A stretch of DNA of 64,000 bases from an uncultured Pseudomonadota bacterium (GTDB lineage Bacteria; Myxococcota_A; Polyangia; Fen-1088): assembly GCA_963847705.1 (NCBI GenBank), contig CAWKBC010000027.1, positions 544,001 to 608,000 on the forward strand. The letters run 5' to 3'. Shown here one piece after another: positions 41,459 through 63,080 of the stretch. How positions within the stretch are numbered: position 1 is the first letter of the stretch; the number at the start of each line of letters is the position of its first letter. A program made the translations under genes and the position numbers. Under the pieces are notes generated by a model. That model ran no database searches, had not been told where the DNA came from, and was given only the letters and a program-made list of their open reading frames with translations.

Positions 41459-42924
41459 CGCGCCGCGCGCAGCGCCGGGTAGAGCCGCTGGAAACGCGCG
41501 TAAGGCTCGTCGTAAGCGCGGTGCGCGTCGGGGCGGGGCGCCACGGCCGGACGCCGGCGGATGGTCTTGGCGGCGTCGGCGACGCTGGCGAAGGCGCCCG
41601 CGCCGACGGCGGCCAGCAGCGCGGCGCCGAGCGCGGGGCCCTCGGGCTGATCGACCGGTACCACCGGCTTGCCGTAGACGTCGGCCTGAAGCTGCCGGAC
41701 GAAAGGCGCGTTGGCCCCACCTCCGGTGATCAGCACCTCGGGGACGTCGACGCCGAGCGACTCGATGATCGCCAGGCTGTCGCGCAGGCCGAAGCAGATC
41801 CCCTCCAGCACCGCGCGCGTCAGGTGCGCACGCGTATGCGCCAGCGAGATGCCCACGAAGGCGCCGCGCGCGTCGGCGTCACGATGCGGCGTTCGCTCGC
41901 CCTGGAGATAAGGAAGGAACGTCAGGCCCAGCGCGCCCGGCGGGACGCGCGCCGCCTCCTTGTTGAGAAGCTCGGCGGCGTCCTTCTTCTTGGCCAGCTC
42001 GCGCGCCAGCTCCCGCTGGTGCCAGGCGAAGGCGCCCCCCGCGGTGAGCATCACGCCCATCACGTACCAGGTGTCGGGGGCAGCGTGACAGAAGGTGTGG
42101 GCGCGCATCCCGGGATCGACCTTGGGCGCGGCGGTCGGACAGACGACCGTCCCCGAGGTTCCCCAGCTGGCCACCACGGCGCCCGGCGCGACGGCGCCGA
42201 CACCGATGGCGCCGCAGGCGTTGTCCGCGCCGCCGCCCACGATCGGGGTGCCGGCGGCGAGGCCGGTCACCGCTGCGGCGCGCGCCGAGACGGTGCCGAG
42301 CACGTCGGTCGAGCCCGCAACTTCAGGCAGCAGCGACGGAGCGAGCTCCATCGCGTCGAGCATCTCCCGGCTCCAGCGCCGGTTGGCCACATCGAGCAGC
42401 AGCGTCCCCGCCGCGTCGGAGTACTCCGTGGCCAGCGTCCCCGAGAGCTGCAGCCGGATGTAGTCCTTGGGCAGCAGCACCTTGGCCAGCCGCGCGAAGG
42501 CGGCCGGCTCGTTGTCGCGCAGCCAGAGGATCTTCGGCAGGGTGAACCCCTCCATCGGAGGGTTCGAGACCCAGGCCCGCAGCGAGGCCTCGTCGACCCG
42601 GGCCGCGATGGCGCGGCACTGGGCGGTGGTCCGCCCGTCGCACCAGAGCAGGGCGGGGCGGATCACCTTGTTGGCGCTGTCGAGAAAGACCGACGAGTGC
42701 ATCTGCCCCGACAGACCGACAGCGTCGATCTTCCGCTTGCCGACCGCGCGCTTGATCGCGCGCATCGCGGCCTTCCACCAGTCGGCCGGGCTCTGCTCCG
42801 CCCAGCCGGGCTGCGGGACGCGCATCGCCAGCGGTTCGCTGGCGCGCGCGACCGTCTTACCGCGACCGTCGACGACCAACGCCTTGACGTTGGTCGTCCC
42901 GACATCGATGCCGAGAAAGTTCAC
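41455..42924 (-). CDS. xylB: Xylulokinase
   Basis: LGIDVGTT, GLSGQMHS, ALLWCDGRT, FTLPKILW, LLPKDY, GGGADNA, PYLQGERTPH; downstream of xylA. Confidence 0.93.
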   Translation of the reverse strand: MNFLGIDVGTTNVKALVVDGRGKTVARASEPLAMRVPQPGWAEQSPADWWKAAMRAIKRAVGKRKIDAVGLSGQMHSSVFLDSANKVIRPALLWCDGRTTAQCRAIAARVDEASLRAWVSNPPMEGFTLPKILWLRDNEPAAFARLAKVLLPKDYIRLQLSGTLATEYSDAAGTLLLDVANRRWSREMLDAMELAPSLLPEVAGSTDVLGTVSARAAAVTGLAAGTPIVGGGADNACGAIGVGAVAPGAVVASWGTSGTVVCPTAAPKVDPGMRAHTFCHAAPDTWYVMGVMLTAGGAFAWHQRELARELAKKKDAAELLNKEAARVPPGALGLTFLPYLQGERTPHRDADARGAFVGISLAHTRAHLTRAVLEGICFGLRDSLAIIESLGVDVPEVLITGGGANAPFVRQLQADVYGKPVVPVDQPEGPALGAALLAAVGAGAFASVADAAKTIRRRPAVAPRPDAHRAYDEPYARFQRLYPALRAAR

Positions 42925-42938
42925 GAGGTCAGTCGCTC

Positions 42939-43015
42939 AGCGCGTGGGGGAGAGCCGGCTTTGCCGGCTCGAGCCCTTCGCGGGAGGGTTTGGGAACCCG
43001 TTGCGGGTTCCCATT
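42939..43015 (+). repeat. Structured intergenic repeat, copy 1
   Basis: AGCGCGTGGGGGAGAGCCGGCTTTGCCGGCTCGAGCCCTTCGCGGGAGGGTTTGGGAACCCGTTGCGGGTTCCCATT; homologous to copies at 54806, 57799 and 58978. Confidence 0.85.
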
Positions 43016-44222
43016 ATCCACGAACGCCGAGCAAGATCTCGGTCGTCAGCTGATCGAGGCGCTCGAACTCGAAGCCCTTCACCGCCATCGCCTTGGCGTC
43101 GAAGTCATGCGCCTTGAGCGTCGCGGCCGTCTTCTTGTCGTACTTGAAGTGCGGGCCCAGGCCGCCGGTCAGGGTGGTGTTGCGCACCTCCTGCGTGGCC
43201 AGGATCTCGCGGATCTCGGCGTCGGCGTGGAAGCGCGCCACCTTGTCCTTGAGGATGTTGTAGGACCGCATGCTGTAGTAGGCGAAGTCCCAGACGCCCT
43301 GCTCGTCCTCGGTGCGGTAGGCGTGGCTGTCGAAGTGGCGCATGCCGTCCCAGCGCGAGTCCTCGAGCAGCTTGACCAGGAAGAAGGCGCCCTTCTGATC
43401 TTCGCTGGCGAAGCGGAGGTCCTGATCGTAGCGGCCCGGCTTCTGGCCGTTCAGATCGATGTGGAACAGCTTGCCGCACTCGATGGCCTGACCGACGGCG
43501 TGCGAGAAGTCGAGCCCCGGCATCACCTCGTGCGCGACCTCGGGGTTCACGCCGACCATCTCGTGGTGATCGAGCGTGTAGATGAAGGCCAGCATGTGGC
43601 CGGTGGTCGGCAGGAAGATGTCGCCACGCGGCTCGTTCGGCTTGGCCTCCAGCGCGAACTTCAGGTTGTAGCCGTTGTCGCGCACGTACTCGCAGAGGAA
43701 GTTGATCGCTTCGCGGAAGCGCTTCACCGCGTCGCGCGGATCCTTGGCGGCGTTGGTCTCGAGACCTTCCCGCCCGCCCCAGAAGACGTAAGTGCTGGCG
43801 CCGAGGTCGACGCCGAGATCGATCGCCCGCATCGTCTTCGACAGCGCGAGCGCGCGGATGCCGGCGTCGTTGCTGGTGAAGGCCCCCTCGCGGAAGACCG
43901 GCTGCGAGAAGAGGTTGGTGGTCGCCATCGGGACCTTCATTCCCGTCTCGGCGAGCGCACCCTTGAACTCGCGGATGATCTTCTCACGCTCGGCCGTGGT
44001 GGCCTCGTACGGAATCAGATCCTCGTCGTGCAAGTTGACGCCGTAGGCGCCGAGCTTGCTGAGCTCGTGGACAATCTTCACGGGCGGCAGCACCTCACGC
44101 ACGGCGTGGCCGAACGGATCGCGACCCGTGTTGCCAACCGTCCAGAGACCGAACGTGAAGTGGTCCTCGGGGCGGGGGTTGAACTTATCGTTTGGGTAAC
44201 GTGAATGAGAAGATCGGTTCAT
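43014..44222 (-). CDS. xylA: Xylose isomerase (short, actinobacterial-type class I)
   Basis: FTFGLWTVG..GRDPFG, TTNLF, WGGREG, EAKPNEPRGDIFLPT, NPEVAHE, HIDLNGQ, DQDLRF. Confidence 0.95.
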   Translation of the reverse strand: MNRSSHSRYPNDKFNPRPEDHFTFGLWTVGNTGRDPFGHAVREVLPPVKIVHELSKLGAYGVNLHDEDLIPYEATTAEREKIIREFKGALAETGMKVPMATTNLFSQPVFREGAFTSNDAGIRALALSKTMRAIDLGVDLGASTYVFWGGREGLETNAAKDPRDAVKRFREAINFLCEYVRDNGYNLKFALEAKPNEPRGDIFLPTTGHMLAFIYTLDHHEMVGVNPEVAHEVMPGLDFSHAVGQAIECGKLFHIDLNGQKPGRYDQDLRFASEDQKGAFFLVKLLEDSRWDGMRHFDSHAYRTEDEQGVWDFAYYSMRSYNILKDKVARFHADAEIREILATQEVRNTTLTGGLGPHFKYDKKTAATLKAHDFDAKAMAVKGFEFERLDQLTTEILLGVRG

Positions 44223-44250
44223 GGCGCTTAGGTTACTATCCCGGCCCATC

Positions 44251-45267
44251 ATGACAAAGAACTCAATGCTCGCCCGCGGCGGAATTGCCGCTGAAGTTCT
44301 CATTTCTGTTCTCATTTTTGGCGGCGCCTGCAACCGGACGCCCGCGGGCGCCGGCTCCGGGGGGGCGGCCGCACCGGCGCCCAGTTTCGTGAAGCTCGGT
44401 TTCGTTACCAACAACACCAGCGAATTCTGGAAAATCGCAGGGGCAGGGATCCACAAGTACGAGAAGGAAGCGAAGGTTCAAGTCGACTTGAAGCTGCCGG
44501 CCAGCGGCACCGCCGAGAGTCAGAACCAGATCCTGCAGGATCTCGCCAGTCAGGGGTATGGCGCGATCGCCGTCAGCGCCATCGCGCCGGACGATCAGGT
44601 GCCGCTGCTCGACAAGATCGCCGAGAAGACCAACCTCATCACCTTCGACTCTGACGCGCCCAAGTCCAAGCGGCTGCTCTACATCGGGACCGACAACTAC
44701 GAGGCCGGGAAGGTGCTGGGGGGCCGGATTGTCACGCTGCTTCCCAAGGGGGGGAAGATCGCGGTCTTCGTCGGGACGTTCGCGGCCGACAACGCGGCCC
44801 AGCGTTTCAAGGGGATCGCCGACGTGATCGCCGGGCACAAGATCGACATCATCGACAAGCGCGAGGACAACACCGACCGGGCCAAGGCGCGCTCCAACGT
44901 CGAGGATCTGGTCAACGCGCATCACGACCTGGCGCTGGTGGTCGGTCTTTACAACTACAACGGGCCGGCCATCGCGGCCGCGCTGGACGGGCTCGGCAAG
45001 AAGGGGAAGGTGCTGGCGGCCGTGTTCGACGAGGACGACGGGACGCTGGACGGGATCGAGAGCGGCGCCATCCAGGTCACGGTGGTCCAGAAGCCGTTCA
45101 TGTTCGGCTACCTCGCCTCGAAGTGGATGCATGAGCTGGCCACCAAGGGCGAGGCGGCGAAAGCGGCCATCCCCCCCAATCACAGCATCGACACCGGCGT
45201 CGATTTGATCGATAAGAGCAACGTCGCTGGCTTCAAGGCCAAGCTGGCCGAGCTGAAGCGTTCGTAG
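44251..45267 (+). CDS. Sugar ABC transporter substrate-binding lipoprotein (RbsB-like)
   Basis: Lipobox FGGAC; FVTNN.SEFW, ITFDSDAP, YIGTDNYEAG, FDED, VVQKPF.FGY. Start may be 44266. Confidence 0.9.
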   Translation: MTKNSMLARGGIAAEVLISVLIFGGACNRTPAGAGSGGAAAPAPSFVKLGFVTNNTSEFWKIAGAGIHKYEKEAKVQVDLKLPASGTAESQNQILQDLASQGYGAIAVSAIAPDDQVPLLDKIAEKTNLITFDSDAPKSKRLLYIGTDNYEAGKVLGGRIVTLLPKGGKIAVFVGTFAADNAAQRFKGIADVIAGHKIDIIDKREDNTDRAKARSNVEDLVNAHHDLALVVGLYNYNGPAIAAALDGLGKKGKVLAAVFDEDDGTLDGIESGAIQVTVVQKPFMFGYLASKWMHELATKGEAAKAAIPPNHSIDTGVDLIDKSNVAGFKAKLAELKRS

Positions 45268-45285
45268 CCGACCACCACCACTTCC

Positions 45286-46839
45286 GTGAGCACGACCGAG
45301 ATCTCGACCGACTCTTCTCTCACCGCGGCGCCGCGTCTCGAGATGCGGGGCATCGGCAAGCGCTTCGCCGGCGTGACGGCGTTGCGCGACGTTTCGCTCT
45401 TCGCCCGTGGCGGCGAGGTGCTGGCGCTGATGGGGGAGAACGGCGCCGGCAAGAGCACGCTCATGAAGATCCTGGGCGGCGTTCAGCCCCCCGACACCGG
45501 CGAGATCCGGATCGAGGGCAAGCCGGTCGTCATCGACGGGGTGCGGTCGGCCAAGAAGCTGGGGATCGCGCTCATCCACCAGGAGCTGATGCTGGCGCCG
45601 AACCTCGACATCGCGGCCAACATCTTTCTCGGCACCGAGGGGACGCCGTTCCTCTTGTCTCCGCTGCCGCGGGCGGCGATGAACAGGAAGGCGACGGCGC
45701 TTCTGGCGCGCGTGGGGCTGGAGTTACCGCCCACCACGCTCGTGAGCGACTTGACCGTCGGTCAGATGCAGATGGTGGAGATCGCGCGGGCGCTCTCGTC
45801 GGACGCCCGCATCCTGATCATGGACGAGCCCACCGCCTCGCTGTCGGCGAACGAGTCGGAGAAGCTGTTCGAGGTCATCCGCAAGCTGCGCGCGGACGGC
45901 GTCTGCATCATCTACATCTCGCACCGCATGGAGGAGGTCCAGCTGCTGGCCGACCGCGTGACCGTCCTGCGCGACGGGCGCTTCGCCGGCGACCTGGCGA
46001 AGGCCGAGGCGTCCTCCGACAAGATCGTGGCCTTGATGGTCGGCCGCGAGCTGTCGGGCGCCTACTTCCCCGAGCGGAAGGATCGCGTCTCGGGTGAGGT
46101 GGTCCTCGAGGTGAAGGACCTGCTCGTCCCGGGCGCACCGGCCGGCGTCAGCTTCGTCGCGCGCCGGGGCGAGATCCTGGGCTTCGCCGGGCTGGTGGGG
46201 GCGGGCCGCACCGAGCTGGTCACGACGATCTTCGGCGTCACCCCGGCGCATTCCGGCACGATGCTCCTTGACGGTGTCCCGTTCGCGCCGCGCAACCCGC
46301 GCGACGCCATCAATCGCGGCGTCTACCTGGCGCCCGAGGATCGCAAGCACCACGGCCTGGTGCTGCCGATGTCGATCACCGAGAACACCACGCTTCCTGG
46401 GCTTCGGGCCTACAGCCGCTGGGGTCGCCTCGACGGCGCGGCCGAGCGCCGGGTGGCCGAGGCGGAGGTGGCGCGGCTGGGGACGCGGACCCCCAGCGTC
46501 CGCCAGAAAGTCGTGACACTTTCGGGCGGCAACCAGCAAAAGGTGGTGCTGGGAAAATGGCTGGCGATGAATCCACGGGTGCTGATCCTCGACGAGCCGA
46601 CGCGCGGGATCGACGTCGGCGCCCGGGCGGAGATCTACCGGCACATCGCCAAGCTGGCGGCGGACGGGATTGCCGTGGTGGTCGTGAGCTCAGACATGGA
46701 AGAGGTGATTGGACTATGCGATCGGGTTCTCGTGATGCGTGAGCGGCGAATGACGGGTCTGCTCACAGGCGGTGACATCACCCAGGCGCGCATCGGCGCG
46801 CTCATGACGGGCGCCGTGCGCGCCGAGGCGGCAGCGTGA
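45286..46839 (+). CDS. Sugar ABC transporter ATP-binding protein with two ATPase domains (RbsA/XylG-like)
   Basis: GENGAGKSTL, QMVEIARAL, MDEPT, ISHRM, GLVGAGRTEL, LSGGNQQK, DEPTRGIDVGA. Confidence 0.93.
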   Translation: MSTTEISTDSSLTAAPRLEMRGIGKRFAGVTALRDVSLFARGGEVLALMGENGAGKSTLMKILGGVQPPDTGEIRIEGKPVVIDGVRSAKKLGIALIHQELMLAPNLDIAANIFLGTEGTPFLLSPLPRAAMNRKATALLARVGLELPPTTLVSDLTVGQMQMVEIARALSSDARILIMDEPTASLSANESEKLFEVIRKLRADGVCIIYISHRMEEVQLLADRVTVLRDGRFAGDLAKAEASSDKIVALMVGRELSGAYFPERKDRVSGEVVLEVKDLLVPGAPAGVSFVARRGEILGFAGLVGAGRTELVTTIFGVTPAHSGTMLLDGVPFAPRNPRDAINRGVYLAPEDRKHHGLVLPMSITENTTLPGLRAYSRWGRLDGAAERRVAEAEVARLGTRTPSVRQKVVTLSGGNQQKVVLGKWLAMNPRVLILDEPTRGIDVGARAEIYRHIAKLAADGIAVVVVSSDMEEVIGLCDRVLVMRERRMTGLLTGGDITQARIGALMTGAVRAEAAA

Positions 46840-47891
46840 AGCGCGAGCTGGGGATGGGCGCCGCGTTGGCGGTGATCTGCCTGGCGCTCTTCATTTCGAA
46901 CAGCGACTTCCTGGGCCAGTCGAACGCCGTCAACACGCTCCGCCAGATCTCCATGCTGGGGATCTACGCCATCGGCAGCGGCTTCGTGATCGTGACCGGA
47001 GGGATCGACCTGTCGGTCGGCTCCGTCGTCGGGCTGACGGGCGTCATCATCGCCCGGGTCTCGTCGCAGGCGACGGGTGGAGGCGGGCACTCGCTGCTGC
47101 TGGGGATCGTCGTGGCGCTCGCCGTCGCCCTGCTCATCGGGCTCGCGCAGGGGCTGCTCATCACGCGCCTCAACCTGCAGCCCTTCATCGTCACGCTGGC
47201 GGGGATGCTGTTCATTCGCGGGATCTCGCAGACGGTCGTCCAGGGAGGCACGCTGAGCCTGGGGACGTCGCCGCTGCTGGGTCTGGCCAACGGCGGTCTC
47301 TTCATGCATGGCGGCGACCCGCTGGTCCCGTGGCCGCTGCTGATCTTCCTGGGGGTGATCGCTGTCGGCGGCTACGCCCTGCACGCGACGGTGTTCGGTC
47401 GCTACCTCTACGCCATCGGCGGCAACCGCGAGGCGGCGGCCTACTCCGGGATCCCGGTGAAGCGGATCGAGACCACCACCTACGTCATCTCGGCCGGCCT
47501 GGCCGGGGTGGCCGGCGTCTGCTACGCGGCCTACATTGGCCAGATGTCGCAGCAGGTCGGCGTCGCCTACGAGCTCTACGCCATCGCCGCCGTGGTCCTC
47601 GGCGGCTGCTCGCTGCGCGGCGGCGAGGGGACCGTCCTCGGCATCGTGATCGGCTCGGCGATGATGAAGGTCATCGACAACGGCATCAACATGTTCCAGG
47701 TCCGCTACCAGGACGCCGACGGCGTTCCGAGGCTCTGGCGGCTCGACGCCAACTGGACGTTCATCATCGTCGGCTCGGTCATCCTGATCGCCGTGGTGCT
47801 CGACCAGGTCGTCCACGTGGTGCAGGCCAAACGCCGCCTGCGCCCGGTCGAGGCGCCGGTGGCGCCCGCGCCTTCGATTCCCGCCGTCTGA
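46836..47891 (+). CDS. Sugar ABC transporter permease (RbsC-like)
   Basis: TGGIDLSVGS, PFIVTL, FGRYLYAIGGN..AA.YSGI, YELYAIAAVVLGG.SL.GGEG. Confidence 0.93.
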   Translation: MKRELGMGAALAVICLALFISNSDFLGQSNAVNTLRQISMLGIYAIGSGFVIVTGGIDLSVGSVVGLTGVIIARVSSQATGGGGHSLLLGIVVALAVALLIGLAQGLLITRLNLQPFIVTLAGMLFIRGISQTVVQGGTLSLGTSPLLGLANGGLFMHGGDPLVPWPLLIFLGVIAVGGYALHATVFGRYLYAIGGNREAAAYSGIPVKRIETTTYVISAGLAGVAGVCYAAYIGQMSQQVGVAYELYAIAAVVLGGCSLRGGEGTVLGIVIGSAMMKVIDNGINMFQVRYQDADGVPRLWRLDANWTFIIVGSVILIAVVLDQVVHVVQAKRRLRPVEAPVAPAPSIPAV

Positions 47892-47947
47892 GGCTGGTCC
47901 GGAATCCGTCGGGTCGGACTTGCACGGCCGGAGTGACCCAACACAAT

Positions 47948-48199
47948 ATCATCAGCCGGCAGGAGGTCGTCGAGCTCATCGACACGGTGATGGTGGCGCC
48001 CGTGAGGTCGAGCATTCGCGGGGCACCGTCGGAGGTCGTCGTGGGAACCGTGGAGGGACTCAAGCACGAATCGGGCGTCTCCCTGGACCACGTCCAGACC
48101 GTAGAAAAACGTCGTCTTCGAAGCTGCGTGGGACGTCTCGGGCCGTCGAAGATGGCCGCGCTCTCTCGAGCCCTGGCGGTGGCGACAGGCTGCGTTTAG
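47948..48199 (+). pseudogene. 5'-truncated PemK/MazF-family toxin remnant with no antitoxin
   Basis: IISRQEVVELIDTVMVAPVRSSIRGAPSEVVVG..EGLKHESGVSLDHVQTVEKRRL...VGRL..SKM..L.RALAVATGC resembles the C-terminal two-thirds of PemK/MazF. The N-terminal RG..W...K.RP segment is absent. Confidence 0.7.
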
Positions 48200-48714
48200 A
48201 GCGCGCCCGGCAGGCCGAGCTGGCCCGAAGATGCCGTCCGCGCCTCGAGCTCCAGGAGGAGGCGCTTCCTGGGCAGGCCGCCGCCGTAGCCCGTCATCGA
48301 GCCATCGGCGCCGATGACGCGGTGGCAGGGGATGATGATGGCGATCGGGTTGCGGTGGTTGGCGCCGCCGACGGCGCGCGAGGCGTCCGGCCGGCCGACC
48401 GCGCGGGCGATCTCGCCGTAGGTCGCGGTCCCTCCGAAGGGGATTCGCACCAGCGCGGCCCAGACCTTCCTTTGAAAGGCGGTCCCGGGCGGGACGAGCG
48501 GGAGATCGAAGCGCGTCCGCGCGCCGGCGAAGTACTCCTCGAGCTGCTTCATCGCCGGGCGCAGCCGGCGGTCGTCTCGCCTGCTGTCGGCGCGCATCTT
48601 CGCGGCGAGGGGATCCTGGTCGAAGTAGAGGCCGACCAGATCGTCCCCCTGGCCGACCAGGGTCAGCTGGCCAACCGGGCTCGACATGGTGCTGGAGAAG
48701 GTGCTGTTGCTCAT
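48196..48714 (-). CDS. ogt: Methylated-DNA-protein-cysteine methyltransferase
   Basis: GTAFQ.KVW..L..IPFG.T.TYG, RAVG.AN..NP.AIIIPCHRVIG; SD AGGAG; ATGA overlap with the alkA stop. Confidence 0.93.
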   Translation of the reverse strand: MSNSTFSSTMSSPVGQLTLVGQGDDLVGLYFDQDPLAAKMRADSRRDDRRLRPAMKQLEEYFAGARTRFDLPLVPPGTAFQRKVWAALVRIPFGGTATYGEIARAVGRPDASRAVGGANHRNPIAIIIPCHRVIGADGSMTGYGGGLPRKRLLLELEARTASSGQLGLPGAL

Positions 48715-50273
48715 GGCTGACTTGCTCCTGCGAGTTGGTTGCTGGAACGCGGACGAAGTTGGGCGCCTCGCGTGGCTGCCCGCTGGGTGCCGCGCTCGGT
48801 CCAAAGATGGGTGGCGCCGTAAGCCCGCCAGGGGCTCCAGCGCTGGGCGAGGGCGCGGGCCTGGCGCCCGGAGATGCCGCCGAGCGCCTGGCGCAGGACG
48901 AGATCGTCCTCGGGGAAGGCGTCGGGCCAGCCGAGACCACGCATCGCCAGGCAGTGCGCGGTCCAGGGACCCACGCCCGGCAACGCGACCAGCTGCTCGA
49001 CCAGCCGCGCCGGCTCACCCACGGCGTCGAGCGAGAGCTCCCCGCGCGAGACCGCGCGGGCCAGCATGCGCAACGTCGCGGCGCGGCTGCCGGGGACACC
49101 CAGCGCCGCCAGATCGCGCGCGGTCGCGCCCGCGATGGCGTCCGCGTCGGGAAAGAGGTGCGTCAACGTCGGGGAGGGCGTGGCGATCGCCCGGCCCAGC
49201 CGGCTGGTGAGCCGCCCGGCGATGGTCCCCCCGGCCGCGACGCTCACCTGCTGTCCGAGCACCGCCCGTGCGGCCGCCTCGAACGGATCGAAGGCGCCGG
49301 CCACGCGCAGTCCCGGGCGGGCCCGCACGTGCGGGGCCAGCCGCCGATCGCGCGCGAGGTGAGCGGCGATCGCCGCGGGGCGCGCGTCGAGATCGAAGAG
49401 CCGCCGCAGCCGCGCCACCACCGACATGAGCGCTCCGGTGAGTGAGGTCGAGATCGTCGCCCGCAAGGCCGGCCGTTTGGGATCGGGAGCGGGATCGGGC
49501 GCCACCGACAGCCATCCCCGGTGCGCGCCGACGGCGGCGGTCCGCAGGTAGACGCCGTCGCGCACCAGCTCGACGCCCGGGATGGCGTGCGCGGCGAGGT
49601 AGCCCAGGATCGCGGGCCAGTCGTAAGGCGACCGGTAGGGGAGCCGCACGGTCACCGCCTCCTCGGGTGGTTCGCCGGCGCGCGATTCCCGGTCGCCACC
49701 GCTGCGCCGCATGGCAGAGGGCGGGCGGCCGTAGCGGGCCTGCACGGCAGCGTTGAAGCGCCGCACGCTGCGGAACCCGCTGGCGAAGGCGACCTCGGTC
49801 ATCGGCAGCGCGGTGTCGACGATCAGCTGCCGGGCCAGCGCCAGCCGCCGCGACTCGGCCAGGGGCAGGGGCCCCACGCCGATCTCGGCCTGCATGGCCC
49901 GGCGGAGGTGTCGGCCGGAGACGCCCAGCGCGGCGGCCAGCTCCTCCACACTCGTCCCGTCGGAGAGCGCCCCGTCTTCGATCCGGCGCATCGCCGCGAC
50001 GACCAGACGCGACAGCGCGTCGACCGGCGCCGCGCCGGGCGCCAGCTCGGGGCGGCAGCGGAAGCAGGAGCGGAACCCGGCCGTCTCGGCCTCGGCGGCG
50101 GTTCGAAAGAAGAGGCAGCGATCGCGCCCGGGTGTGCGTGCCGGACAAATCGGACGGCAGTAGATCCCGGTGGTCTTGACCGCGACGAAGAAGATCCCGT
50201 CGAAGCGGACGTCGCGGGCGACGATGGCCCGGTAGCAGGAATCGGGATCGAGAGGCGACACGGGTCCAACCAT
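48711..50273 (-). CDS. alkA: Ada-AlkA fusion (Ada Zn domain, AraC HTH, DNA-3-methyladenine glycosylase II)
   Basis: RD.RFDG.FF.AVKTTGIYCRPICPAR...FRSCFRCRPE, FASGF.S.RRFN, GQQVSV, LPGVGPWT, PDAFP..D. Confidence 0.92.
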   Translation of the reverse strand: MVGPVSPLDPDSCYRAIVARDVRFDGIFFVAVKTTGIYCRPICPARTPGRDRCLFFRTAAEAETAGFRSCFRCRPELAPGAAPVDALSRLVVAAMRRIEDGALSDGTSVEELAAALGVSGRHLRRAMQAEIGVGPLPLAESRRLALARQLIVDTALPMTEVAFASGFRSVRRFNAAVQARYGRPPSAMRRSGGDRESRAGEPPEEAVTVRLPYRSPYDWPAILGYLAAHAIPGVELVRDGVYLRTAAVGAHRGWLSVAPDPAPDPKRPALRATISTSLTGALMSVVARLRRLFDLDARPAAIAAHLARDRRLAPHVRARPGLRVAGAFDPFEAAARAVLGQQVSVAAGGTIAGRLTSRLGRAIATPSPTLTHLFPDADAIAGATARDLAALGVPGSRAATLRMLARAVSRGELSLDAVGEPARLVEQLVALPGVGPWTAHCLAMRGLGWPDAFPEDDLVLRQALGGISGRQARALAQRWSPWRAYGATHLWTERGTQRAATRGAQLRPRSSNQLAGASQP

Positions 50274-50462
50274 GCCCCGTTCGGACGAAACGCGCTGGCC
50301 GTTTTCGGACCTGGCGACAACTTCGTCTCGTCCCGCCCGCCCTGATGACCTGGGCCGGGGTTCGTCCTAACCGAGCGGCAATGCGATCGTGGTCGGAGAG
50401 GACGACTGCGGCAAGGTCCCTCTGCACGAACTGAATCGACGCGGTCGGCGACGACGCCCTCC

Positions 50463-51200
50463 TCAGGGCAGCCGGGTGGTCACCAGCGCCAGGGTCTGAT
50501 CGCCGAGCGGCCCCGCACCCTGCTGCTTCACCAGGCCGACACCCTTGGCGTACCAGGAGATGAGCGGTGGGCGGTGCTTCTGCGCGCGCCGGAGCCGCAG
50601 GCAGGTGAAGGTCCCGGCCGGCACCGACACCTGGTCGGTGAGGGACTCAACCTCCCATTTGGCCTCGGCCCGCTTGCTCTTCGGGTGGCCCTTGGCGTTC
50701 GGGGTGGTGTTGATGAACGCCTCCGGCCATTTGACGCCGACGGCGAGCCGTTCGGACCGCTCGTCGACCACGGTGATCGGCGGGTCGTACGACCTCTCGT
50801 CGAGCAGGTTGCCAGCGCGGTCGTCGATCTCCTCCTGCTCGAGCGCCACGCGCTTCGCCTCGCGCCCCTCCCAGCTCCAGATCGTTCCATCGAGGAGCTC
50901 CTCGCGGATCCGGTACTCGGCCACCGCGCCGTTCGACCCGGCGTAGTCGACGCCGTCGACGCTGACGACGCCCTCTCCCCGGCGGCCGTCGTCGCGGGTG
51001 ATCGCGTAGCGCCAGACCGCCCCGACCTCGAGCGGCAGGTAGCTGGCCGCCAGGGCGGCCCCTTCGTGGCCCTGGGCGACGGAGCTGCAGCCAGACGATC
51101 CCAGGATGCCGAGGCCGGCGAGGGCACAAAGCCCGACGACCATCCCGCCCGCCCTTCCACCCGTCGTTCCACCCATTTTGGCCCGAACCACAGACCACAC
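50463..51200 (-). CDS. Hypothetical exported protein or lipoprotein (DUF3108-like beta fold)
   Basis: Hydrophobic segment ending SSGC; YLPLEVGAVWRY, VSVPAGTFTCL, WYAKGVGLVK. Confidence 0.7.
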   Translation of the reverse strand: MWSVVRAKMGGTTGGRAGGMVVGLCALAGLGILGSSGCSSVAQGHEGAALAASYLPLEVGAVWRYAITRDDGRRGEGVVSVDGVDYAGSNGAVAEYRIREELLDGTIWSWEGREAKRVALEQEEIDDRAGNLLDERSYDPPITVVDERSERLAVGVKWPEAFINTTPNAKGHPKSKRAEAKWEVESLTDQVSVPAGTFTCLRLRRAQKHRPPLISWYAKGVGLVKQQGAGPLGDQTLALVTTRLP

Positions 51201-51283
51201 GACTCTTCACAATAGTCACGGATCGGCGGACCGGGAGCGTGCTCGATCGGGGCCGCCGTTGAAGGTCATCCGCAGCGCTGGAC

Positions 51284-52336
51284 GTGGCCCGACTCGATCG
51301 GGTATCAAAGGAGGGCTTGAAGAAAGCACGCGTGCTCGTTCTCTTCGACACGGACGGCGAGCCGCCCGCGTCGCAGGATTACAAAAAGCAGGTCGAGTCG
51401 ACCGACGAGGCGGAGTTCGACGTGGCCCGCGCCCTCATCTCGAAGGGGCACGAGGTCCGGCTGTTCGGTTTTCGCGACAACCTCGATCAGCTGGTGGCCG
51501 GCCTGCGCGCCGAGCCGGTCGACGTCGTCTTCAACCTGGTCGAGCGGTTCCGCGGCCAGTCGGGGCTCGACTACACGGTGGCCGCCGTGCTGGAGATGCT
51601 GGGCCTGCCGTACACCGGGGCGTCGACCGAAGGGCTGATGCTGGCGCGCGACAAGGCGCTCACCAAGAAGGTGTTCGCTTACCAGGGGATCCGGATCCCG
51701 CACTTCATGGTCTGCAAGCAGAGGACGCCGATGCAGCGGCCGAGCGACCTGCGCTTCCCGCTGATCGTCAAGCCGCTGGACGAGGACGCCTCGGTCGGCA
51801 TCGCGCAGGCCTCGGTGGTGCGCGACGACGACGCGCTCAAGGAGCGGGTCAACTTCATTCACAAGCAATTCAAGACCGCCGCCATCGTCGAGGAGTTCAT
51901 TGCCGGCCGCGAGCTCTACATCGGCGTGTGGGGGAACGATTCGCCGGTGGCGTTGCCGCCGATCGAGATGGTCTTCGGCAGCGAGACGACGGCCGAGAAC
52001 CGGATCGCCACCTTCAAGGCCAAGTGGAGCGTTCGCTACCGTGAGGGGCGGGGGATTCAGAACGAGATCGCCCAGAACCTCTCCGCCGAGGTGCGGCAAC
52101 GATTGGCCGAGGTGGCGTTGCGCGCCTACGAGGCCGCCGGGTTGCGTGACTACGGCCGCATCGACGTCCGGCTGGCCCACGACGACGCCATCTACATCGT
52201 CGAGGCGAATCCCAATCCCTACCTGGCCGATGGCGAGGATCTCGCCTGGGCGGCCGAGGAGGGCGGGAACCTCTATCCCGATTTCATCGAAAAGATCGCC
52301 GAGATGGCGATTATCCGCGGCGTCTCGCGCGGTTGA
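51284..52336 (+). CDS. D-alanine-D-alanine ligase-like ATP-grasp protein (non-canonical)
   Basis: DVVFNL.E, PYTGA, DKALTKK, FPLIVKP..EDAS.GI, VEEFI.GRE, RDYGRIDVRL, IVEANPNPYL; lacks the Ddl N-terminal GGxSxE motif. Confidence 0.85.
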   Translation: MARLDRVSKEGLKKARVLVLFDTDGEPPASQDYKKQVESTDEAEFDVARALISKGHEVRLFGFRDNLDQLVAGLRAEPVDVVFNLVERFRGQSGLDYTVAAVLEMLGLPYTGASTEGLMLARDKALTKKVFAYQGIRIPHFMVCKQRTPMQRPSDLRFPLIVKPLDEDASVGIAQASVVRDDDALKERVNFIHKQFKTAAIVEEFIAGRELYIGVWGNDSPVALPPIEMVFGSETTAENRIATFKAKWSVRYREGRGIQNEIAQNLSAEVRQRLAEVALRAYEAAGLRDYGRIDVRLAHDDAIYIVEANPNPYLADGEDLAWAAEEGGNLYPDFIEKIAEMAIIRGVSRG

Positions 52337-52453
52337 TTGCAGAGCGCGATCTTTCGCCGCTGTGTATGATCGGGCGCAGGTCGGCCAGCGCGTGGAACGG
52401 CCGTTCGCTCGTAGCGGGATCCTCGCTCACGGCTTCGCGCAAAAGGGGTTCGC

Positions 52454-54247
52454 TTGCGGGTGCATCAACTCAGCTTCGTTCTCGCCGTTTCGCTCTGCCT
52501 CGGCGCCGGCTGCTCGTCCGGCGGCGGTTCCCCCAGCTGGATCACGCACGACATCCGCGTCGACACCGTGGGCTACACCACCGGGCACACCAAGGTGGCC
52601 ACCGTGGTCCTGCCGGCCGGCATGACGACCGTCTCCGATGACCTGGCGGAGGTCTTCGACCTGAACGGAGATCTCCAGTGGGGCTGCCAGCTGACCGGCC
52701 CCTTCACCGACCCGGCGCTGAACGTGACGTACTACTTCGCCGACTTCTCGGCGTTCGACGATCCTGGAACGTTCTATGTGAAGGTGAAGTCGCTCGCCAC
52801 CGACGCCACCGACGAGACGGCGCAGTCGGCGCCGTTTCAGATCGGGCCCGGCGTCCTGGCCGGCGCGCTCACCAGCGCGATGACCGGGCTCTACGGCCAG
52901 CGCTGCGGCACGGCGGTGAAGATCACCATGGGCGACGACACCTGGCAGCACGGCGCCTGCCACCAGCACGACGCCGATTCGCTCAAGTACCTCTCCGGCA
53001 GCGACGCGCCGTTCCCCAGCGTGGGCGGCTGGCACGACGCGGGCGACTACGGCAAGTACGTGAACAACGGCGCCTTCAGCGTGGGGATGCTGCTGGCGGC
53101 CTGGGAGCATTTCCAGCCGACGCTGGCGGCGCTGGCGCTGCCGATCCCCGAGCACGGCCAGACCGCCGACGGCGGCTCGGGGCCGCTGCCCGACTTCCTC
53201 TGGGAGGTGAAGTGGGAGCTCGACTGGCTGCTCTCCGCGCAGAACGCCAGCGGCGGCAGCGGCGGTCTCCCCGACAAGCTGACGGCGCTCGATTTCGAGG
53301 CCTACGGGACGATGCCCGACGACGACCACCAGAAGCGCTACTTCTCCGGCCTCGGGACGGCGATGACCGCCGACGTGGTGGCGGTGATGGCCAAGGCGGC
53401 GCGCCTCTACCAGGACGACGCGCCCGCGGACGCCGCCAAGTACCTGGCCGCGGCCCAGCTCGGCTACGCGTACCTGAGCGCCAACGCCGGTCCGGCCGTC
53501 GCCGCCAACGACGACCCCACCTCGGCCAGCAATGTCTTCTCGACGGGCCACTACTTCGAGACCGATCCGGACAACCGCCTCTGGGCGGCGGCCGAGCTGT
53601 GGGAGACGACCGGCGATCCGGCGGTGCTGGCCGACTTCGAGGCGCGCGCGGCGGGGCAGACGGTGGCCGCCGACTTCGACTGGTCGAACGTCGCGAACCT
53701 CGGCATCTACACCTATCTGCTGTCTCAGCGGCCGGACGCGGCGTCACGCGACGCGACGCTGGTGGCCACGCTCTCCGCCAGCCTGCTGACCGCGGCCGAT
53801 TCGCTGGTGACGACCGCCGGGACGCACGCCTTCGGCCGGGCGATCGGGGACAACTTCTACTGGGGATCGAACGGCTCGGTGGCGCGCACGGCGATCTTGC
53901 TCTGGGTCGCCAACCTGCTGGCCCCCGATCCGAAGTACCTGAACACCATCCAGATGCAGGTCGACTTCCTGCTGGGGCGGAACTCCTACGATCGCTCTCA
54001 GGTGACGATGGTCGGCTACCACCCGCCCACCGCGCCCCACCACGGGCCCTCGAGCGGCGACGGGATCTCCGACCCCTGGCCCGGCCTCCTGGTGGGCGGC
54101 GCCAACAGCACCTCGAAGAACGTCGCGCCGTCGGACACCAACTGGATCGACGTCGCCGGCGCCTACGAAGTCAACGAGATCGCCATCAACTGGATCACAC
54201 CCTTCGTCTACGCCACCGCCGCGCTCACCCCGCCGCCGGCCATGTAG
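52454..54247 (+). CDS. GH9 glycoside hydrolase lipoprotein with Ig-like N-terminal domain
   Basis: Lipobox GAGC; IRVDTVGY, ADFS....PG.FY, QRCG, GGWHDAGDYGKY, WAAAELW..TGD, WGSN, NEIAINW. Confidence 0.9.
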   Translation: MRVHQLSFVLAVSLCLGAGCSSGGGSPSWITHDIRVDTVGYTTGHTKVATVVLPAGMTTVSDDLAEVFDLNGDLQWGCQLTGPFTDPALNVTYYFADFSAFDDPGTFYVKVKSLATDATDETAQSAPFQIGPGVLAGALTSAMTGLYGQRCGTAVKITMGDDTWQHGACHQHDADSLKYLSGSDAPFPSVGGWHDAGDYGKYVNNGAFSVGMLLAAWEHFQPTLAALALPIPEHGQTADGGSGPLPDFLWEVKWELDWLLSAQNASGGSGGLPDKLTALDFEAYGTMPDDDHQKRYFSGLGTAMTADVVAVMAKAARLYQDDAPADAAKYLAAAQLGYAYLSANAGPAVAANDDPTSASNVFSTGHYFETDPDNRLWAAAELWETTGDPAVLADFEARAAGQTVAADFDWSNVANLGIYTYLLSQRPDAASRDATLVATLSASLLTAADSLVTTAGTHAFGRAIGDNFYWGSNGSVARTAILLWVANLLAPDPKYLNTIQMQVDFLLGRNSYDRSQVTMVGYHPPTAPHHGPSSGDGISDPWPGLLVGGANSTSKNVAPSDTNWIDVAGAYEVNEIAINWITPFVYATAALTPPPAM

Positions 54248-54292
54248 ATTCCGGGAGTGCGGTAGAGTGCGGGCTTACCAACGGAGAACATC

Positions 54293-54805
54293 ATGCATAT
54301 GACGAAATCGTCCATTGTTCGCGCCTGCGGGGCGGTGGCTGCGCTCTTTCTGCTCGGTTGCGGGAGCAGCTCGATCGCCGGCGATCCGGCGGCGGCGTTC
54401 GCGGGCAACTGGACCTTCGGCTCCGGCTCGATCGACGCGACTTGCAACATCAGCATCCCGTCTTTCGCTCTGACGGGCGACACGCTGACCGTCACCAGGG
54501 TCGATCCCACGCACGTGGCCACGAATCTTCAGGGAAACGGCCTCACGTGCGACGTCAACTTCACGGTCACCGGTACGACCGCGACCGCGTCGACCGGACA
54601 GACCTGCACGGTCATGACCACGGTTTCTGGGGCTTCGGTGACCGCACTCATCACAGTCAGCAGCTGGTCGCTGACCGTTTCCGGCGACATGCTCACCAAC
54701 TCGATGTCAGGGACAGCGACCGCGGCAGGTGGGCTGGTCAGTTGCACCTCGGTGACCGCCGACGGGGCGGCGACCCGCGCCTCCGACGCCGGCACCGGCG
54801 GGTAG
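54293..54805 (+). CDS. Hypothetical Thr-rich lipoprotein
   Basis: SD GGAG; lipobox LLGC; FAGNW; beta-rich with four further Cys. Confidence 0.75.
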   Translation: MHMTKSSIVRACGAVAALFLLGCGSSSIAGDPAAAFAGNWTFGSGSIDATCNISIPSFALTGDTLTVTRVDPTHVATNLQGNGLTCDVNFTVTGTTATASTGQTCTVMTTVSGASVTALITVSSWSLTVSGDMLTNSMSGTATAAGGLVSCTSVTADGAATRASDAGTGG

Positions 54806-54882
54806 AGCGCGTGGACGGAGCCGGGCTTTGCCCGGCGGAGTCCTTAGCGGGAGGGCTTGGGAACCCTTTGAGGGTTCCCATT
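54806..54882 (+). repeat. Structured intergenic repeat, copy 2
   Basis: AGCGCGTGGACGGAGCCGGGCTTTGCCCGGCGGAGTCCTTAGCGGGAGGGCTTGGGAACCCTTTGAGGGTTCCCATT; fills nearly the whole gap between convergent genes. Confidence 0.85.
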
Positions 54883-54885
54883 TGG

Positions 54886-55281
54886 CTAGTAGATCTGGAT
54901 CTCGGGGCGCAGCACCGTGCTGAGGAGGGCCGCCCGGCTCTCCTGCGGCAGAGGCGTCAGGTCACGCAGGAGCTCGTCCAGCGCGGTCGTGTCGGTCTCG
55001 TCGAAGAGGACCGCGAACCCCTTGTAGGCGAGCGTGCGGACCACCCGTCCCGAGGCCTGGCAGGTCTTGCCGCCGGTCGCCGAGAGGACGACCGAGATCC
55101 GCTTGTCGATCGCCATCTCGAGGTTCGACTTGAAGAAGCAGCCGCCGCGCGAGATGTCCTGCAGCTCGGCCTCCACCTGGCCGTTCCGCGACTGACCCCC
55201 GAACTGACTGCCAAGGAAGAGCAGGGTCACCGGAAGCCCCAACCCGAGCCGGGGATACTGCCGCTGCTCCGACCGCCCCAT
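54886..55281 (-). CDS. Single-domain PilZ protein (probable c-di-GMP receptor)
   Basis: RQYPR (RxxxR) and DISRGG (DxSxxG), followed by GRVVR and FAVLF. Confidence 0.88.
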
Positions 55282-55330
55282 CCATGGCAGCATGCCACAA
55301 ACGGGGGGGCGTGGTATCACTCCGCGCGTC

Positions 55331-57520
55331 ATGGCCGCTGCAGTTGAGGGCGTAGCTCGAAGTCGTTCCGGCTTCGTTCCCGTCTCGCCCGATCTGGTCC
55401 CGCGTTCGCTGTTCGCGCGGCGCAAGCACTGGGCCGAGCGGTTCGGCACCGCGCCCGTCCTTCCGACGACGCGCGAGGAGATGGACGCGCTCGGCTGGGA
55501 CAGCTGCGACGTGGTCCTGGTGACCGGCGACGCCTACGTCGATCACCCGAGCTTCGGCATGGCGCTGGTGGGGCGGCTGCTCGAGGCGCACGGGTTCCGG
55601 GTCGGCATCCTGTCGCAGCCTGACTGGCGCAGCGCGGAGCCGTTCGCAGCGCTGGGGCGCCCCACCGTCATGTGGGGCGTCACCGCCGGCAACATGGACT
55701 CGATGGTCAACCGCTACACCGCCGACCGGCGGCTGCGGCACGACGACGCCTACACGCCGGGCGGCGAGGGGGGGCGCCGGCCCGATCGCGCCGTGGTCGT
55801 TTACGCGCAGCGCTGCCGGGAGGCGTTCCCCGACGTCCCCATCGTCCTCGGCGGCATCGAGGCCAGCCTGCGGCGGATCGCGCACTACGATTACTGGTCG
55901 GACAAGGTCCGGCGCTCGGTGCTGCTGGACGCCAAGGCCGACCTCCTGGTCTACGGCAACGGCGAGCGGGCCATCGTGGAGATCGCGCACCGCCTGGCCG
56001 CCGGGGAGGCCGCCGACGAGATCCGCGACCTGCGCGGCACGGCGTTCTCGCGCCCGACCGGCCCGCCCCCCGAGGGCTGGACCGAGATCGACTCGCGCGA
56101 CGTCGACACACCGGGCGCGCCGGCGCCGCGGATCGACCCCTACGCCGACACCACGGCGGGGGCTGCGTGCGAGCCAGCCGCTGCTTCGGTCGAGCCGTCG
56201 GCCGCGACGGCGGCGCCCCCGTTGGTGCCGGCGGCGGCGCTGCTGGGGCGCGCCCGCAAGGCCGATCGCGCCCACACGGTCGTTCGCCTGCCCGACGTCG
56301 ACGCGGTCACGTCCGACCCCATCCTCTACGCGCACGCCTCGCGGCTCCTGCACGTCGAGTCCAACCCGGGGAACGCGCGGGCGCTGGTGCAGCGCCACGG
56401 CGATCGCGACGTCTGGCTGAACCCGCCGCCGCTGCCGCTGTCGACGCCGGAGATGGACCGGCTCTACGAGTTCCCGTACACGCGCCGCCCGCACCCTTCC
56501 TACGGCGACGCCAAGATCCCCGCCTACGACATGATCCGTTTCTCGGTCACCATCATGCGGGGCTGCTTCGGCGGCTGCACCTTCTGCTCCATCACCGAGC
56601 ACGAGGGGCGGGTGATCCAGAACCGCTCGGAGACCTCGGTCCTGCGCGAGATCGGCGCCGTGCGCGACACGGTCCCGGGGTTCACGGGCGTCATCTCAGA
56701 CATCGGCGGTCCGACCGCCAACATGTATCGCCTGGCGTGCAAGAGCCCCGAGATCGAGTCGGCCTGCCGGCTCCCGTCCTGCGTCTATCCGACCATCTGC
56801 CCCAACTTGGGCACCGATCACACGCCGCTCATCAACCTGTACCGGAAGGTGCGCGCCGTGCCGGGGGTGAAGAAGGTGCTGGTGGCCTCCGGCGTCCGCT
56901 ACGACCTGGCGGCGACGTCACCCGAGTACGTCCGGGAGCTGGCCACCCACCACGTGGGCGGCTACCTGAAGATCGCGCCTGAGCACACCGAGGACGGGCC
57001 GCTCTCCAAGATGCTCAAGCCCGGGATCGCCAGCTTCGAGAAGTTCAAGCGTCTGTTTAACGAAGCCTCGGAAAAGGCCGGCAAGAAACAGTATCTGATC
57101 CCGTACTTCATCGCCTCTCACCCGGGGACCACCGACCGGGACATGCTGGCGCTGGCGCTCTGGCTGAAGAAGAACCGCTACCGCGCGGACCAGGTCCAGA
57201 CGTTCCTGCCGTCGCCGATGGCGACCGCGACCACGATGTATCACACGGGGCAGAACCCGCTCTCCAGGCTGCGGCGCCGCGGTGGCGAAACGGTCCCCAT
57301 TCCCAAGGGCATCAAGGTCCGCCGGCTGCACAAGGCGTTCCTGCGCTACCACGATCCCGCTGGGTGGCCGCTGCTCCGTCAGGCATTGCGCCAGATGGGC
57401 CGCGCCGACCTGATCGGCAATGGCCCGCACCAGCTGGTGCCGCTGCGCCAGCCGGTCAAGGGTGAGGCACCCAAGGCCGACCGCAAGGCGCGTCCGTTCC
57501 GGACGCAGCACACGCGCTAG
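55331..57520 (+). CDS. ygiQ: YgiQ/UPF0313 family radical SAM protein
   Basis: [82 protein letters not shown]. Confidence 0.93.
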
Positions 57521-57529
57521 CGGCGGTTC

Positions 57530-57730
57530 TCAGCCCGCGCTCAGGCTGACTTGCCAGCGGGCGATCTCGGGGGCGACGGCGGCGGCCTCTTCGGCGTCCG
57601 CGGCCACCAGCGCCTCGATGCGCGCCAGGATCAGGCGGGCTGCGGCGTCGGCCCCGGCGGGCCGCTCGACGACCAGGCGGCGAAGCTCATGACGAAGGCG
57701 AACCAACTCGCGCGCGGCAGCGTAATCCAT
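57530..57730 (-). CDS. Small hypothetical helical protein (66 aa)
   Basis: SD GAGGAGG and an upstream TTGACG-N16-TACCGT; MDYAAARELVRLRHELRRL...EIARWQVSLSAG. Confidence 0.6.
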   Translation of the reverse strand: MDYAAARELVRLRHELRRLVVERPAGADAAARLILARIEALVAADAEEAAAVAPEIARWQVSLSAG

Positions 57731-57798
57731 CAGCGTGCCCTCCTCGTGTTTCCACGGTAGGGGCCGGCGCGGCGCCGTCAAATTTTCCGATCGATCAA

Positions 57799-57844
57799 CT
57801 CCCGCGACGAGCTCCGCCGGGCGAAGCCCGGCTTCGTTCACGCG
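57799..57844 (-). repeat. Structured intergenic repeat, copy 3 (partial, lacks the second hairpin)
   Basis: Reverse strand reads CGCGTGAACGAAGCCGGGCTTCGCCCGGCGGAGCTCGTCGCGGGAG; overlaps the DUF2332 stop. Confidence 0.75.
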
Positions 57845-58959
57845 ACGAACACGGCCACCGCGTCGGCTTCGGGCGCCAGGAGCTCGGGGTGGTAGCTGCA
57901 GCGGGCGAGGGTGAGGGTCGCCATGCCACCCGCGCGGTCCGCCGGGTCGGCGATGTGGGCATCGAGCGCCATCGGCAGGCCGCCGGGATCCTTCCAGGCG
58001 TCGGGCGCCGCCTCGAGCTCGATCCAGATCCGCCGTGGTCCGCCCGCCGCCTCCGCCTCCACCCAGTCGGTCATCCCCTTGATGTAGCGGGCCTTCGGTT
58101 CATCAGCCAGGTAGTCGCGGACGACGGTCTGGTAGGCGAGCAACACGGTCTCGGGCGCGGCCGCCTGGGCAAGCCGCTCGAGGCGCGCAGGGACGTCCAC
58201 CAGGTCAGCGATCTCCAGCCGCGGTGGCGTCGGCCCTGAGGCTGCAGCGCGGAAGGCCTCCACCGCGGCGCCCAGGCGCTCGAGGCGCGCGTTTTCGCCG
58301 GGCCAGATGCAGGCGCGCAGCCAGTTCATGTCGTCGGCGCGGCCGACGTCGAGCGGCTGAACGTCGAAGCCGTGGCGCGCCACGATGTTCGCCCCTGCCG
58401 CGACGGGAATGGGCGCGCCCGCCGGATCGCGCCAGGGCGCCGGCAGGCCCCCGGCGCAGAGGTTGAGCCCGGCGCTGCACCCCACGTCGAAGAGCGCCAG
58501 CGGACGCTTGCCGTCCGCGCACCCCGCCAGCGCCGCCGGCCAGAGCCAGGCCACGGCGCGCGAGGTCTCGTTGGTTTGAACCCGCCGGGTGGCCAGCTCG
58601 GCGTAGAGGCGCGGCGGCGCGTCGGCCAGCGCCGTCGCCAGCGCCTCCCGCGTGGCCGCCTCCGGACGGACGTCGGTCGCGCCGACCGCCTCGTAGAGCG
58701 GGTGGCGCGGGCCGGCCCGCAGCGCCTCCGCCCGCAGGGCCGCCATCAGCAGCAGCGGCCGATCATAGCCGGCGGAGAGGCGCCGCTCCCGCCAGGCGGC
58801 CTCGACCCGCGCGCGGGCCGCCTCTTCCAGGCTGCCGACGGGCTGGTCGAAGAGCTCCCCGGCGGCGGCCAGCAGGCGATCGTAGACCGGGGAACGGGCG
58901 CCGACGGCCGCCCGCCAGGCGTCCGCATCCTCGTGGAAGGCGTCGAGTCCCCGTCGCAT
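57838..58959 (-). CDS. DUF2332 family protein
   Basis: SPVY..L, PLLLMAAL, VQTNE..R, DVGCSAGLNL, G.D..P.D, WL.ACIWP....R..RL..A. Confidence 0.82.
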   Translation of the reverse strand: MRRGLDAFHEDADAWRAAVGARSPVYDRLLAAAGELFDQPVGSLEEAARARVEAAWRERRLSAGYDRPLLLMAALRAEALRAGPRHPLYEAVGATDVRPEAATREALATALADAPPRLYAELATRRVQTNETSRAVAWLWPAALAGCADGKRPLALFDVGCSAGLNLCAGGLPAPWRDPAGAPIPVAAGANIVARHGFDVQPLDVGRADDMNWLRACIWPGENARLERLGAAVEAFRAAASGPTPPRLEIADLVDVPARLERLAQAAAPETVLLAYQTVVRDYLADEPKARYIKGMTDWVEAEAAGGPRRIWIELEAAPDAWKDPGGLPMALDAHIADPADRAGGMATLTLARCSYHPELLAPEADAVAVFVA

Positions 58960-58977
58960 CGCCGGGGACTATATAGC

Positions 58978-59050
58978 TCGGAACCCTCGAAGGGTTCCGA
59001 ACCTCCCGCGATGGGCTCCGATGGGCGAAGCCCATCTGCGCCCGACGCGC
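58978..59050 (-). repeat. Structured intergenic repeat, copy 4
   Basis: Reverse strand reads GCGCGTCGGGCGCAGATGGGCTTCGCCCATCGGAGCCCATCGCGGGAGGTTCGGAACCCTTCGAGGGTTCCGA. Confidence 0.82.
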
Positions 59051-59110: not shown

Positions 59111-60169
<1,059 letters not shown>

Positions 60170-62756: not shown

Positions 62757-62834
62757 CCGAGACCGGCGAGGTCTGCTTGACAGGCTTTGCGGCGGGTGGT
62801 TGAAGCGGGATCGAAGTCTGAAAATTGAATAAGC

Positions 62835-63014: not shown

Positions 63015-63080
63015 CGACGCTTTTTTCTCCGCGCGGACGGAGGGTGGTCGTCGGTCTCGTCGTTCGAGGCCGACCCCCGT

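Follow-up and report, generated by a model that had tools for sequence, protein, structure and literature searches.

The window analysed here, a 64,000-nucleotide stretch (positions 544,001 to 608,000, forward strand) of contig CAWKBC010000027.1 in assembly GCA_963847705.1 from an uncultured bacterium of class Polyangia, holds four copies of a repeat with two predicted hairpins. A first-pass annotation, made from the letters alone, had described these copies as sharing a conserved fold, and re-reading of the sequence returned the same coordinates, strands and stems (Table 1). Their contexts within a xylA-xylB operon, between convergent genes and between divergent genes were likewise confirmed by gene calls and Pfam. 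The unit spans about 80 bases (~72–82), with a core mostly of 69–72 nt. On its read strand, a GAT foot leads into hairpin 1, which a GGRGG linker connects to hairpin 2, and the unit closes with a tail that is short and variable.

The site of copy 1 is filled in two of 18 other genomes, carries a remnant in one and is empty in 15; in four DNA sequencing runs (contigs from relatives), the sequence there is replaced rather than cleanly skipped. Copy 2, whose basal stem contains one mismatch, is a 76-base insertion with respect to the closest relative, from which copy 3, with an A-C mismatch in its outer stem, is mostly missing. At the site of copy 4, the same relative has kept hairpin 2 and lost hairpin 1, a case of decay by deletion of one hairpin.

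Size, range and fold of the repeat family

The genome (6.1 Mb, 69% GC, 85% complete) was searched with an iterated nhmmer profile, resulting in 218 copies at E<=0.01 and none in the reversed genome, which bears out the repeat family proposed from the four window copies. These 218 copies form 158 loci, comprising 121 single copies and 37 head-to-tail arrays of two to four, and only one inverted pair was found within 150 nt. The mean identity between paralogous copies is 72%. An exact 3' pattern of the repeat was detected in 24/24 genomes of the same genus, in 1/16 other members of the class and in 0/150 other genomes of the phylum, where diverged forms would escape the pattern; viral contigs gave no exact pattern match. 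Among 80 listed records with the pattern, the titles that name a class or order give Polyangia or Myxococcales, the remainder being described merely as (delta)proteobacterium. A covariance model, for which only 29 candidates were scored per genome, matched 19 of the 151 class genomes, including 15/17 of the window's family and 2/2 and 1/3 of two others, with no match in the other 27 families of the class. The repeat family is thus old, spanning three families of Polyangia. Rfam returned nothing above the gathering threshold for the four window copies, and its best hit on a five-copy stretch (E 0.11) lay far below threshold, consistent with the novelty claimed in the first-pass annotation. The literature searches brought up no account of the family; they took in no comparison with the Myxococcus 87-bp repeat or the Nannocystis RIME.

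Hairpin 1 is built from a basal CGCG stem, a small bulge, a GRR/YYC stem, a symmetric internal loop, a 7-bp stem and a pyrimidine triloop, and hairpin 2 follows the consensus GGRACCCT-NNN-AGGGTYCC, each hairpin being preceded by a conserved 5' foot (nGAT and GGRGG). The compensatory changes first noticed in four copies were recovered in 251 non-redundant ones, with 12 of the 14 pairs of highest mutual information (z 6.8–18) being nested pairs of this fold, and 5495/5939 stem cells being Watson–Crick. In a 23-copy alignment from which kinship was not removed, two-sided changes occurred at 12 pairs; 0/500 shuffles reached the score, and slid controls gave 0.05–0.09 against an observed covariation score of 0.33. 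The read strand folds better than its opposite in 220/251 copies as RNA and in 201/251 as DNA. The two remaining top pairs join a purine of the linker with an R-Y pair of hairpin 2 (model positions 56, 66 and 80), the combinations A-A-T and G-G-C accounting for 129 and 96 of the 251 copies, respectively. Since this link is weak among the closest copies (two changed in concert, ten did not), module inheritance may explain it; an alternative pairing or a base triple could also underlie it.

A GA-rich internal loop had been singled out as a possible protein-binding motif. GA patterns are indeed common in the loop of hairpin 1 (GNA/GNA in 90 copies, tandem GA in 46), but they are not invariant, with 115/251 copies showing neither. 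A kink-turn combines an asymmetric loop, a 3-nt bulge and tandem G-A pairs; because the loop here is symmetric, and 115 copies lack the GA pattern, this assignment was rejected. As a separate observation, some copies have a second hairpin of ~40 nt nested in hairpin 1; its position differs between copies, and either orientation occurs. It lies in or beside the main repeat in 5/7 genome matches and 3/3 matches in the loci of other genomes.

Table 1. Repeat copies, neighbouring genes and other features, with coordinates in the window or under our handles for genomes (G), contigs (C) and loci (L)
Feature	Coordinates	Strand	Remarks
Copy 1, full	42939..43015	+	Directly past the xylA stop codon; antisense to the xylA-xylB operon
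xylB	41455-42924	-	Neighbour of copy 1
xylA	43014-44252	-	Neighbour of copy 1
Copy 2, full	54806..54882	+	Between the stops of two convergent genes
170-aa ORF (open reading frame)	54293-54805	+	Convergent neighbour of copy 2
PilZ gene	54886-55281	-	Convergent neighbour of copy 2 (gene calls and Pfam)
Copy 3, partial	57799..57844	-	Hairpin 1 and linker only
DUF2332 gene	57838-58959	-	TGA stop codon supplied by the outer stem of copy 3
Copy 4, full	58978..59050	-	Between the divergent DUF2332 and DAHP synthase genes
DAHP synthase gene	59111-60169	+	Divergent neighbour of copy 4
Cobalamin riboswitch	62823-63025	+	105.8 bits (Rfam scan)
Nested hairpin sites	L001:1799-1923; G000 C27:914370, C29:192507, C29:367242, C32:143267		
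Y1-like transposons (L389-L391)	G000 C47:~43500-44750, C29:~169300-170500, C2:~31300-32400		~18-bp terminal inverted repeats

Insertion sites and constraint on resident copies

Positions were assigned with our own gene caller, on which all placement statistics rest. The 158 loci divide into 39 between convergent genes, 65 between codirectional genes, 13 between divergent genes, 38 in predicted ORFs and three at contig edges. The label "intergenic" given in the first-pass annotation therefore holds for the four window copies and for 117/158 loci, but not for the family as a whole. Convergent gaps are enriched (p 7e-7) and divergent gaps depleted (p 3e-6), and a stop codon lies within 15 nt of 82/117 intergenic loci. 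All three stop types flank the repeat, with TAG enriched (p 7e-4) and TGA depleted. The enrichment between convergent genes and near stops would suit a family of bidirectional intrinsic terminators, but we hold this reading to be extremely improbable: a T-tract follows hairpin 2 in only 7/159 copies and is found on the opposite strand in 5/159, 38 loci lie in ORFs and many in operons. The orientation relative to transcription shows no significant bias either (42/103 sense, p 0.08), in line with the first-pass judgement that a plain terminator is inadequate. A further copy, which shows compensatory changes and is retained in 8/19 comparisons of orthologous sites from the genus, is located between mglB and an mglA-like gene, both named from reading of the proteins (G000 C1:6622-6690, L056).

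Of the 38 loci in ORFs, 14 lie near the C end and 12 near the N end, where starts may have been miscalled, and the other 12 are internal; the copies are read in all six frames. Six of the 38 were compared with orthologues, revealing precise insertions of 81 nt in recR, lipB and the gene of an RsmI-like methylase, and of 78 nt in those of BirA, a prolyl oligopeptidase and a DUF790 protein. The RecR insert, in the Toprim domain, is absent from 23/23 orthologues, of which 5 show small natural length changes at that spot; an AlphaFold model of this RecR came out at low confidence (mean pLDDT 45). All six genes keep their frame, with dN/dS values of 0.06–0.30 outside the insert, and five are single-copy in the assembly. 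As judged from these alignments, RecR, LipB and BirA persist with a predicted 26–27-residue insert. One relative bears a separate copy at the birA site, in the opposite orientation. Some further features of such genes were recorded. In the insert-bearing RecR (L056:1065-1736), TSTG replaces, ~15 residues past the insert, the TSPS motif that is invariant in eight aligned orthologues. In-frame copies also occur past the domain of a GIY-YIG protein (L058:2908-4644) and in a GH3 glycosidase 2 kb away, and in-frame arrays provide four copies in the N-terminal region of a protein kinase and three in the C-terminal region of a peptidase S58 (L067:193-1992; L073:146-1498).

Empty orthologous sites, proposed as a check in the first-pass annotation, proved frequent: across 134 comparisons at 53 loci, 97 sites were empty, 31 were filled alike and six were filled in the opposite orientation, which points to independent insertions in the last group. 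The repeat is mobile. For the junctions, an empty partner fit for comparison was available at 51 of 212 filled sites, and the junction filter left 29, with many staying ambiguous. The best-resolved ones (recR, rsmI-like, C27:893275, C27:701324, L238 and L149) show 0–2 ambiguous or shared bases and inserts of 75–82 nt, often including the GAT foot; GATC was rejected as a target on that account. The ends of the inserted segment vary, and insertion proceeded mostly without target duplication.

Copies shared between orthologous sites are 90% identical (156 differences over 1551 positions, 22 pairs), compared with 71% at fourfold sites of the neighbouring genes (5349/7523), although the 22 pairs are not independent, eight coming from one locus, and some may represent separate insertions. 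Changes within these pairs were double compensatory in 25 cases, wobble in eight and breaking in 26. Filled alleles are scattered and unclustered on the xylA, xylB and rsmI trees, a pattern that calls for recurrent loss, recurrent gain at a single site or an exchange of alleles. Resident copies are conserved above synonymous sites, yet filled alleles are dispersed across the gene trees.

The main rival to a mobile element moved by a dedicated enzyme is an RNA or DNA structural module kept by the host and lacking such an enzyme, whose copies would originate on rare occasions through template switching or illegitimate recombination and be retained for transcript-end protection or protein binding, with filled and empty alleles swapped between related species by homologous recombination. 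The conservation of shared copies with their double compensatory changes, the better folding of the read strand as RNA, the scattered alleles, the age of the family and the failure to find an enzyme (see below) all agree with it. We consider it unlikely, however, given that orientation shows no significant relation to transcription, most orthologous sites are empty, and the clean any-frame insertions in recR, lipB and birA look selfish; the 22 pairs are also not independent, and some may be separate insertions.

A further possibility, which we rate as distinctly unlikely, is a domesticated module run by a host enzyme without flanking repeats, with precise excision from, or copying into, the same site across species, the GGRGG linker serving as an internal guide that pairs with the TYCC arm of hairpin 2. 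The identical junctions of rsmI in non-sister genomes, the xylA copies that share 96% identity against 61% for synonymous sites, and the linker–hairpin 2 link as the sole long-range covariation may support it.

Known repeats and the search for an enzyme

The closest parallels are found among repetitive extragenic palindromic sequences (REPs), including their bacterial interspersed mosaic elements (BIMEs) and REP doublets forming hairpins (REPINs) with REP-associated tyrosine transposases (RAYTs). According to excerpts of PMC3733652, PMC3333891, PMC6006769 and PMC12306157, these are high-copy hairpins with a short conserved foot 5' of an irregular hairpin, placed near stops, in local arrays, with site polymorphism and some intragenic copies; the copy number, intergenic placement and proximity to stops given above correspond. 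The present repeat differs in being bipartite and about twice as long, REP units having 20–65 nt, in its nGAT foot (GTAG/GTGG in 9, CGTC in 1 and GAT in 56 of 159 copies), in its 37 head-to-tail arrays as opposed to the usual inverted dimers, and in the lack of a flanked RAYT gene in 26 genomes. The CGTC-tagged REPs in the excerpt of PMC3733652 also contain intragenic copies, apparently without a dedicated transposase, but their tag (1/159 here), size, fold and array type differ. A Rickettsia palindromic element (RPE) likewise sits in frame inside unrelated conserved genes, and no mobiliser is identified here in either case; RPEs, compared by description only (excerpt of PMC10969869), measure ~150 bp, carry one conserved peptide and belong to a reduced intracellular genome, whereas the present repeat inserts 78–81 bp in six frames of a 69% GC, 6-Mb genome, with 38/158 loci in ORFs. 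The ends of IS200/IS605 elements and their non-autonomous derivatives are alike in shape only, with two same-strand hairpins, conserved 5' feet and no regular duplication (excerpt of PMC6006769), but the repeat has no fixed target tetranucleotide, its ends vary, replication-strand bias is slight, and no element with its ends surrounds tnpA or tnpB. Overall, the repeat works like REP/BIME and RPE sequences but lacks the REP tag, the inverted dimers, the flanked RAYT gene and the features of a MITE (miniature inverted-repeat transposable element).

The RAYT or IS200/IS605 partner flanked by the element, as suggested in the first-pass annotation, was not found. None of 30 PF01797 (RAYT/TnpA) loci in 26 genus genomes, which are 68–95% complete, has a full copy within ~1.5 kb; a Pfam search of the genome itself for RAYT/IS200 gave nothing, and no half-element pair flanks a transposase there. 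The nearest of 22 tyrosine recombinase matches is ~2.5 kb from a copy, and genes between paired copies resemble ordinary host genes (both judged by eye). These searches proceeded without the serine recombinase, DDE and HNH families, and the Pfam scan omitted the neighbours of most single copies. Spread by an HUH-type enzyme is thus something that we infer.

Three near-identical Y1/HUH-like transposons in the genome, missed by PF01797 and found by tblastn (Table 1), contain short internal tandem repeats and resemble elements of terminal-inverted-repeat tyrosine transposases (TIRYT-like), with relatives in 37/151 class genomes. Together with the enrichment of TAG stops beside the repeat and a weak duplication signal, their presence raises the prospect of a MITE-like passenger of such a transposase, or of a DDE transposase, to which we give a poor chance. 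The repeat lacks terminal inverted repeats (8/159 copies reach 8/12 matches), and with no regular target duplication the MITE label of the first-pass annotation does not apply in the strict sense. Moreover, the transposon loci yield no profile match, the nearest copy being 2.2 kb off; all three stop types flank the repeat; and distributions differ, the transposase occurring in 4/17 genomes of the window's family and in 12/16 of an element-free family, compared with 15/17 for the element.

Retro-copying, by which repeat transcripts would be reverse transcribed and then inserted, has reportedly once been proposed for msDNA-like repeats in Nannocystis. A long imperfect hairpin, partial copies and sloppy ends would fit, but the sole reverse transcriptase match in the assembly (600 aa, L002:940-2742) is separated by 7 kb from the copy closest to it, with none inside its locus, and insertions occur in both orientations, making this route very improbable.

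Mobilisation and its meaning

The repeat is likely to be a mobile element resembling REPs and, on balance, probably a non-autonomous one that moves as folded single-stranded DNA by means of an HUH-type enzyme encoded elsewhere. The two same-strand hairpins, the conserved 5' feet and the sloppy ends without duplication suggest this class of enzyme and an intermediate that is single-stranded. In the excerpts of PMC6006769 and PMC3333891, IS200/IS605 ends and REPs have a short guide 5' of the hairpin foot on one strand, and one active strand, with excision–insertion followed by local amplification, is described for IS200/IS605 and REP/BIME. A hairpin-recognising cut-and-rejoin enzyme would mobilise the repeat as folded single-stranded DNA, insertions would survive mainly just past stops or in frame in variable loops, and arrays would grow and decay locally by slippage. 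Resident copies might be partly retained for a secondary benefit, most likely RNA hairpins shielding transcript ends or a protein-binding site, as in REPs. According to the excerpt of PMC12306157, translation can also be lowered by REPs that lie no more than 15 nt from a stop.

Several observations weigh against this mechanism. The nearest paralogue has a median identity of 89%, reaching at least 97% in only 2/118 cases, so there was no recent burst of copying. IS608-type elements favour the lagging template, but orientation by GC skew is only weakly biased here (68 concordant vs 53 discordant). Shared words at junctions average 3.52 vs 3.26 +/- 0.07, a weak average duplication signal, and the empty sites reveal no fixed target tetranucleotide (GATC in 6/29). 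G-T and A-C stem mismatches are nearly equal in number (82 vs 62) and so favour neither DNA nor RNA as the folded form. Finally, 90 Y1, Y2, IS110, TnpB and reverse transcriptase loci of the genus, including 30 of the 41 listed IS110 matches, show no full copy within ~1.5 kb and one lone hairpin 2, and 183 element loci encode no relative of these proteins.

For annotation, 12/38 in-ORF loci are possibly miscalled starts, and the insert splits protein matches. REP-like and RPE-like repeats are already known as general phenomena; what the present family contributes is a GC-rich setting in which core enzymes (RecR, LipB and BirA) persist with a predicted insert of 26–27 residues. Were the domesticated module real, it would constitute an unrecognised single-strand mobility system, inserting loops of that length into core proteins throughout a lineage of bacteria. 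For studying how REP-like or RPE-like repeats spread when no transposase is flanked by them, this family offers numerous natural pairs of filled and empty sites within coding DNA.

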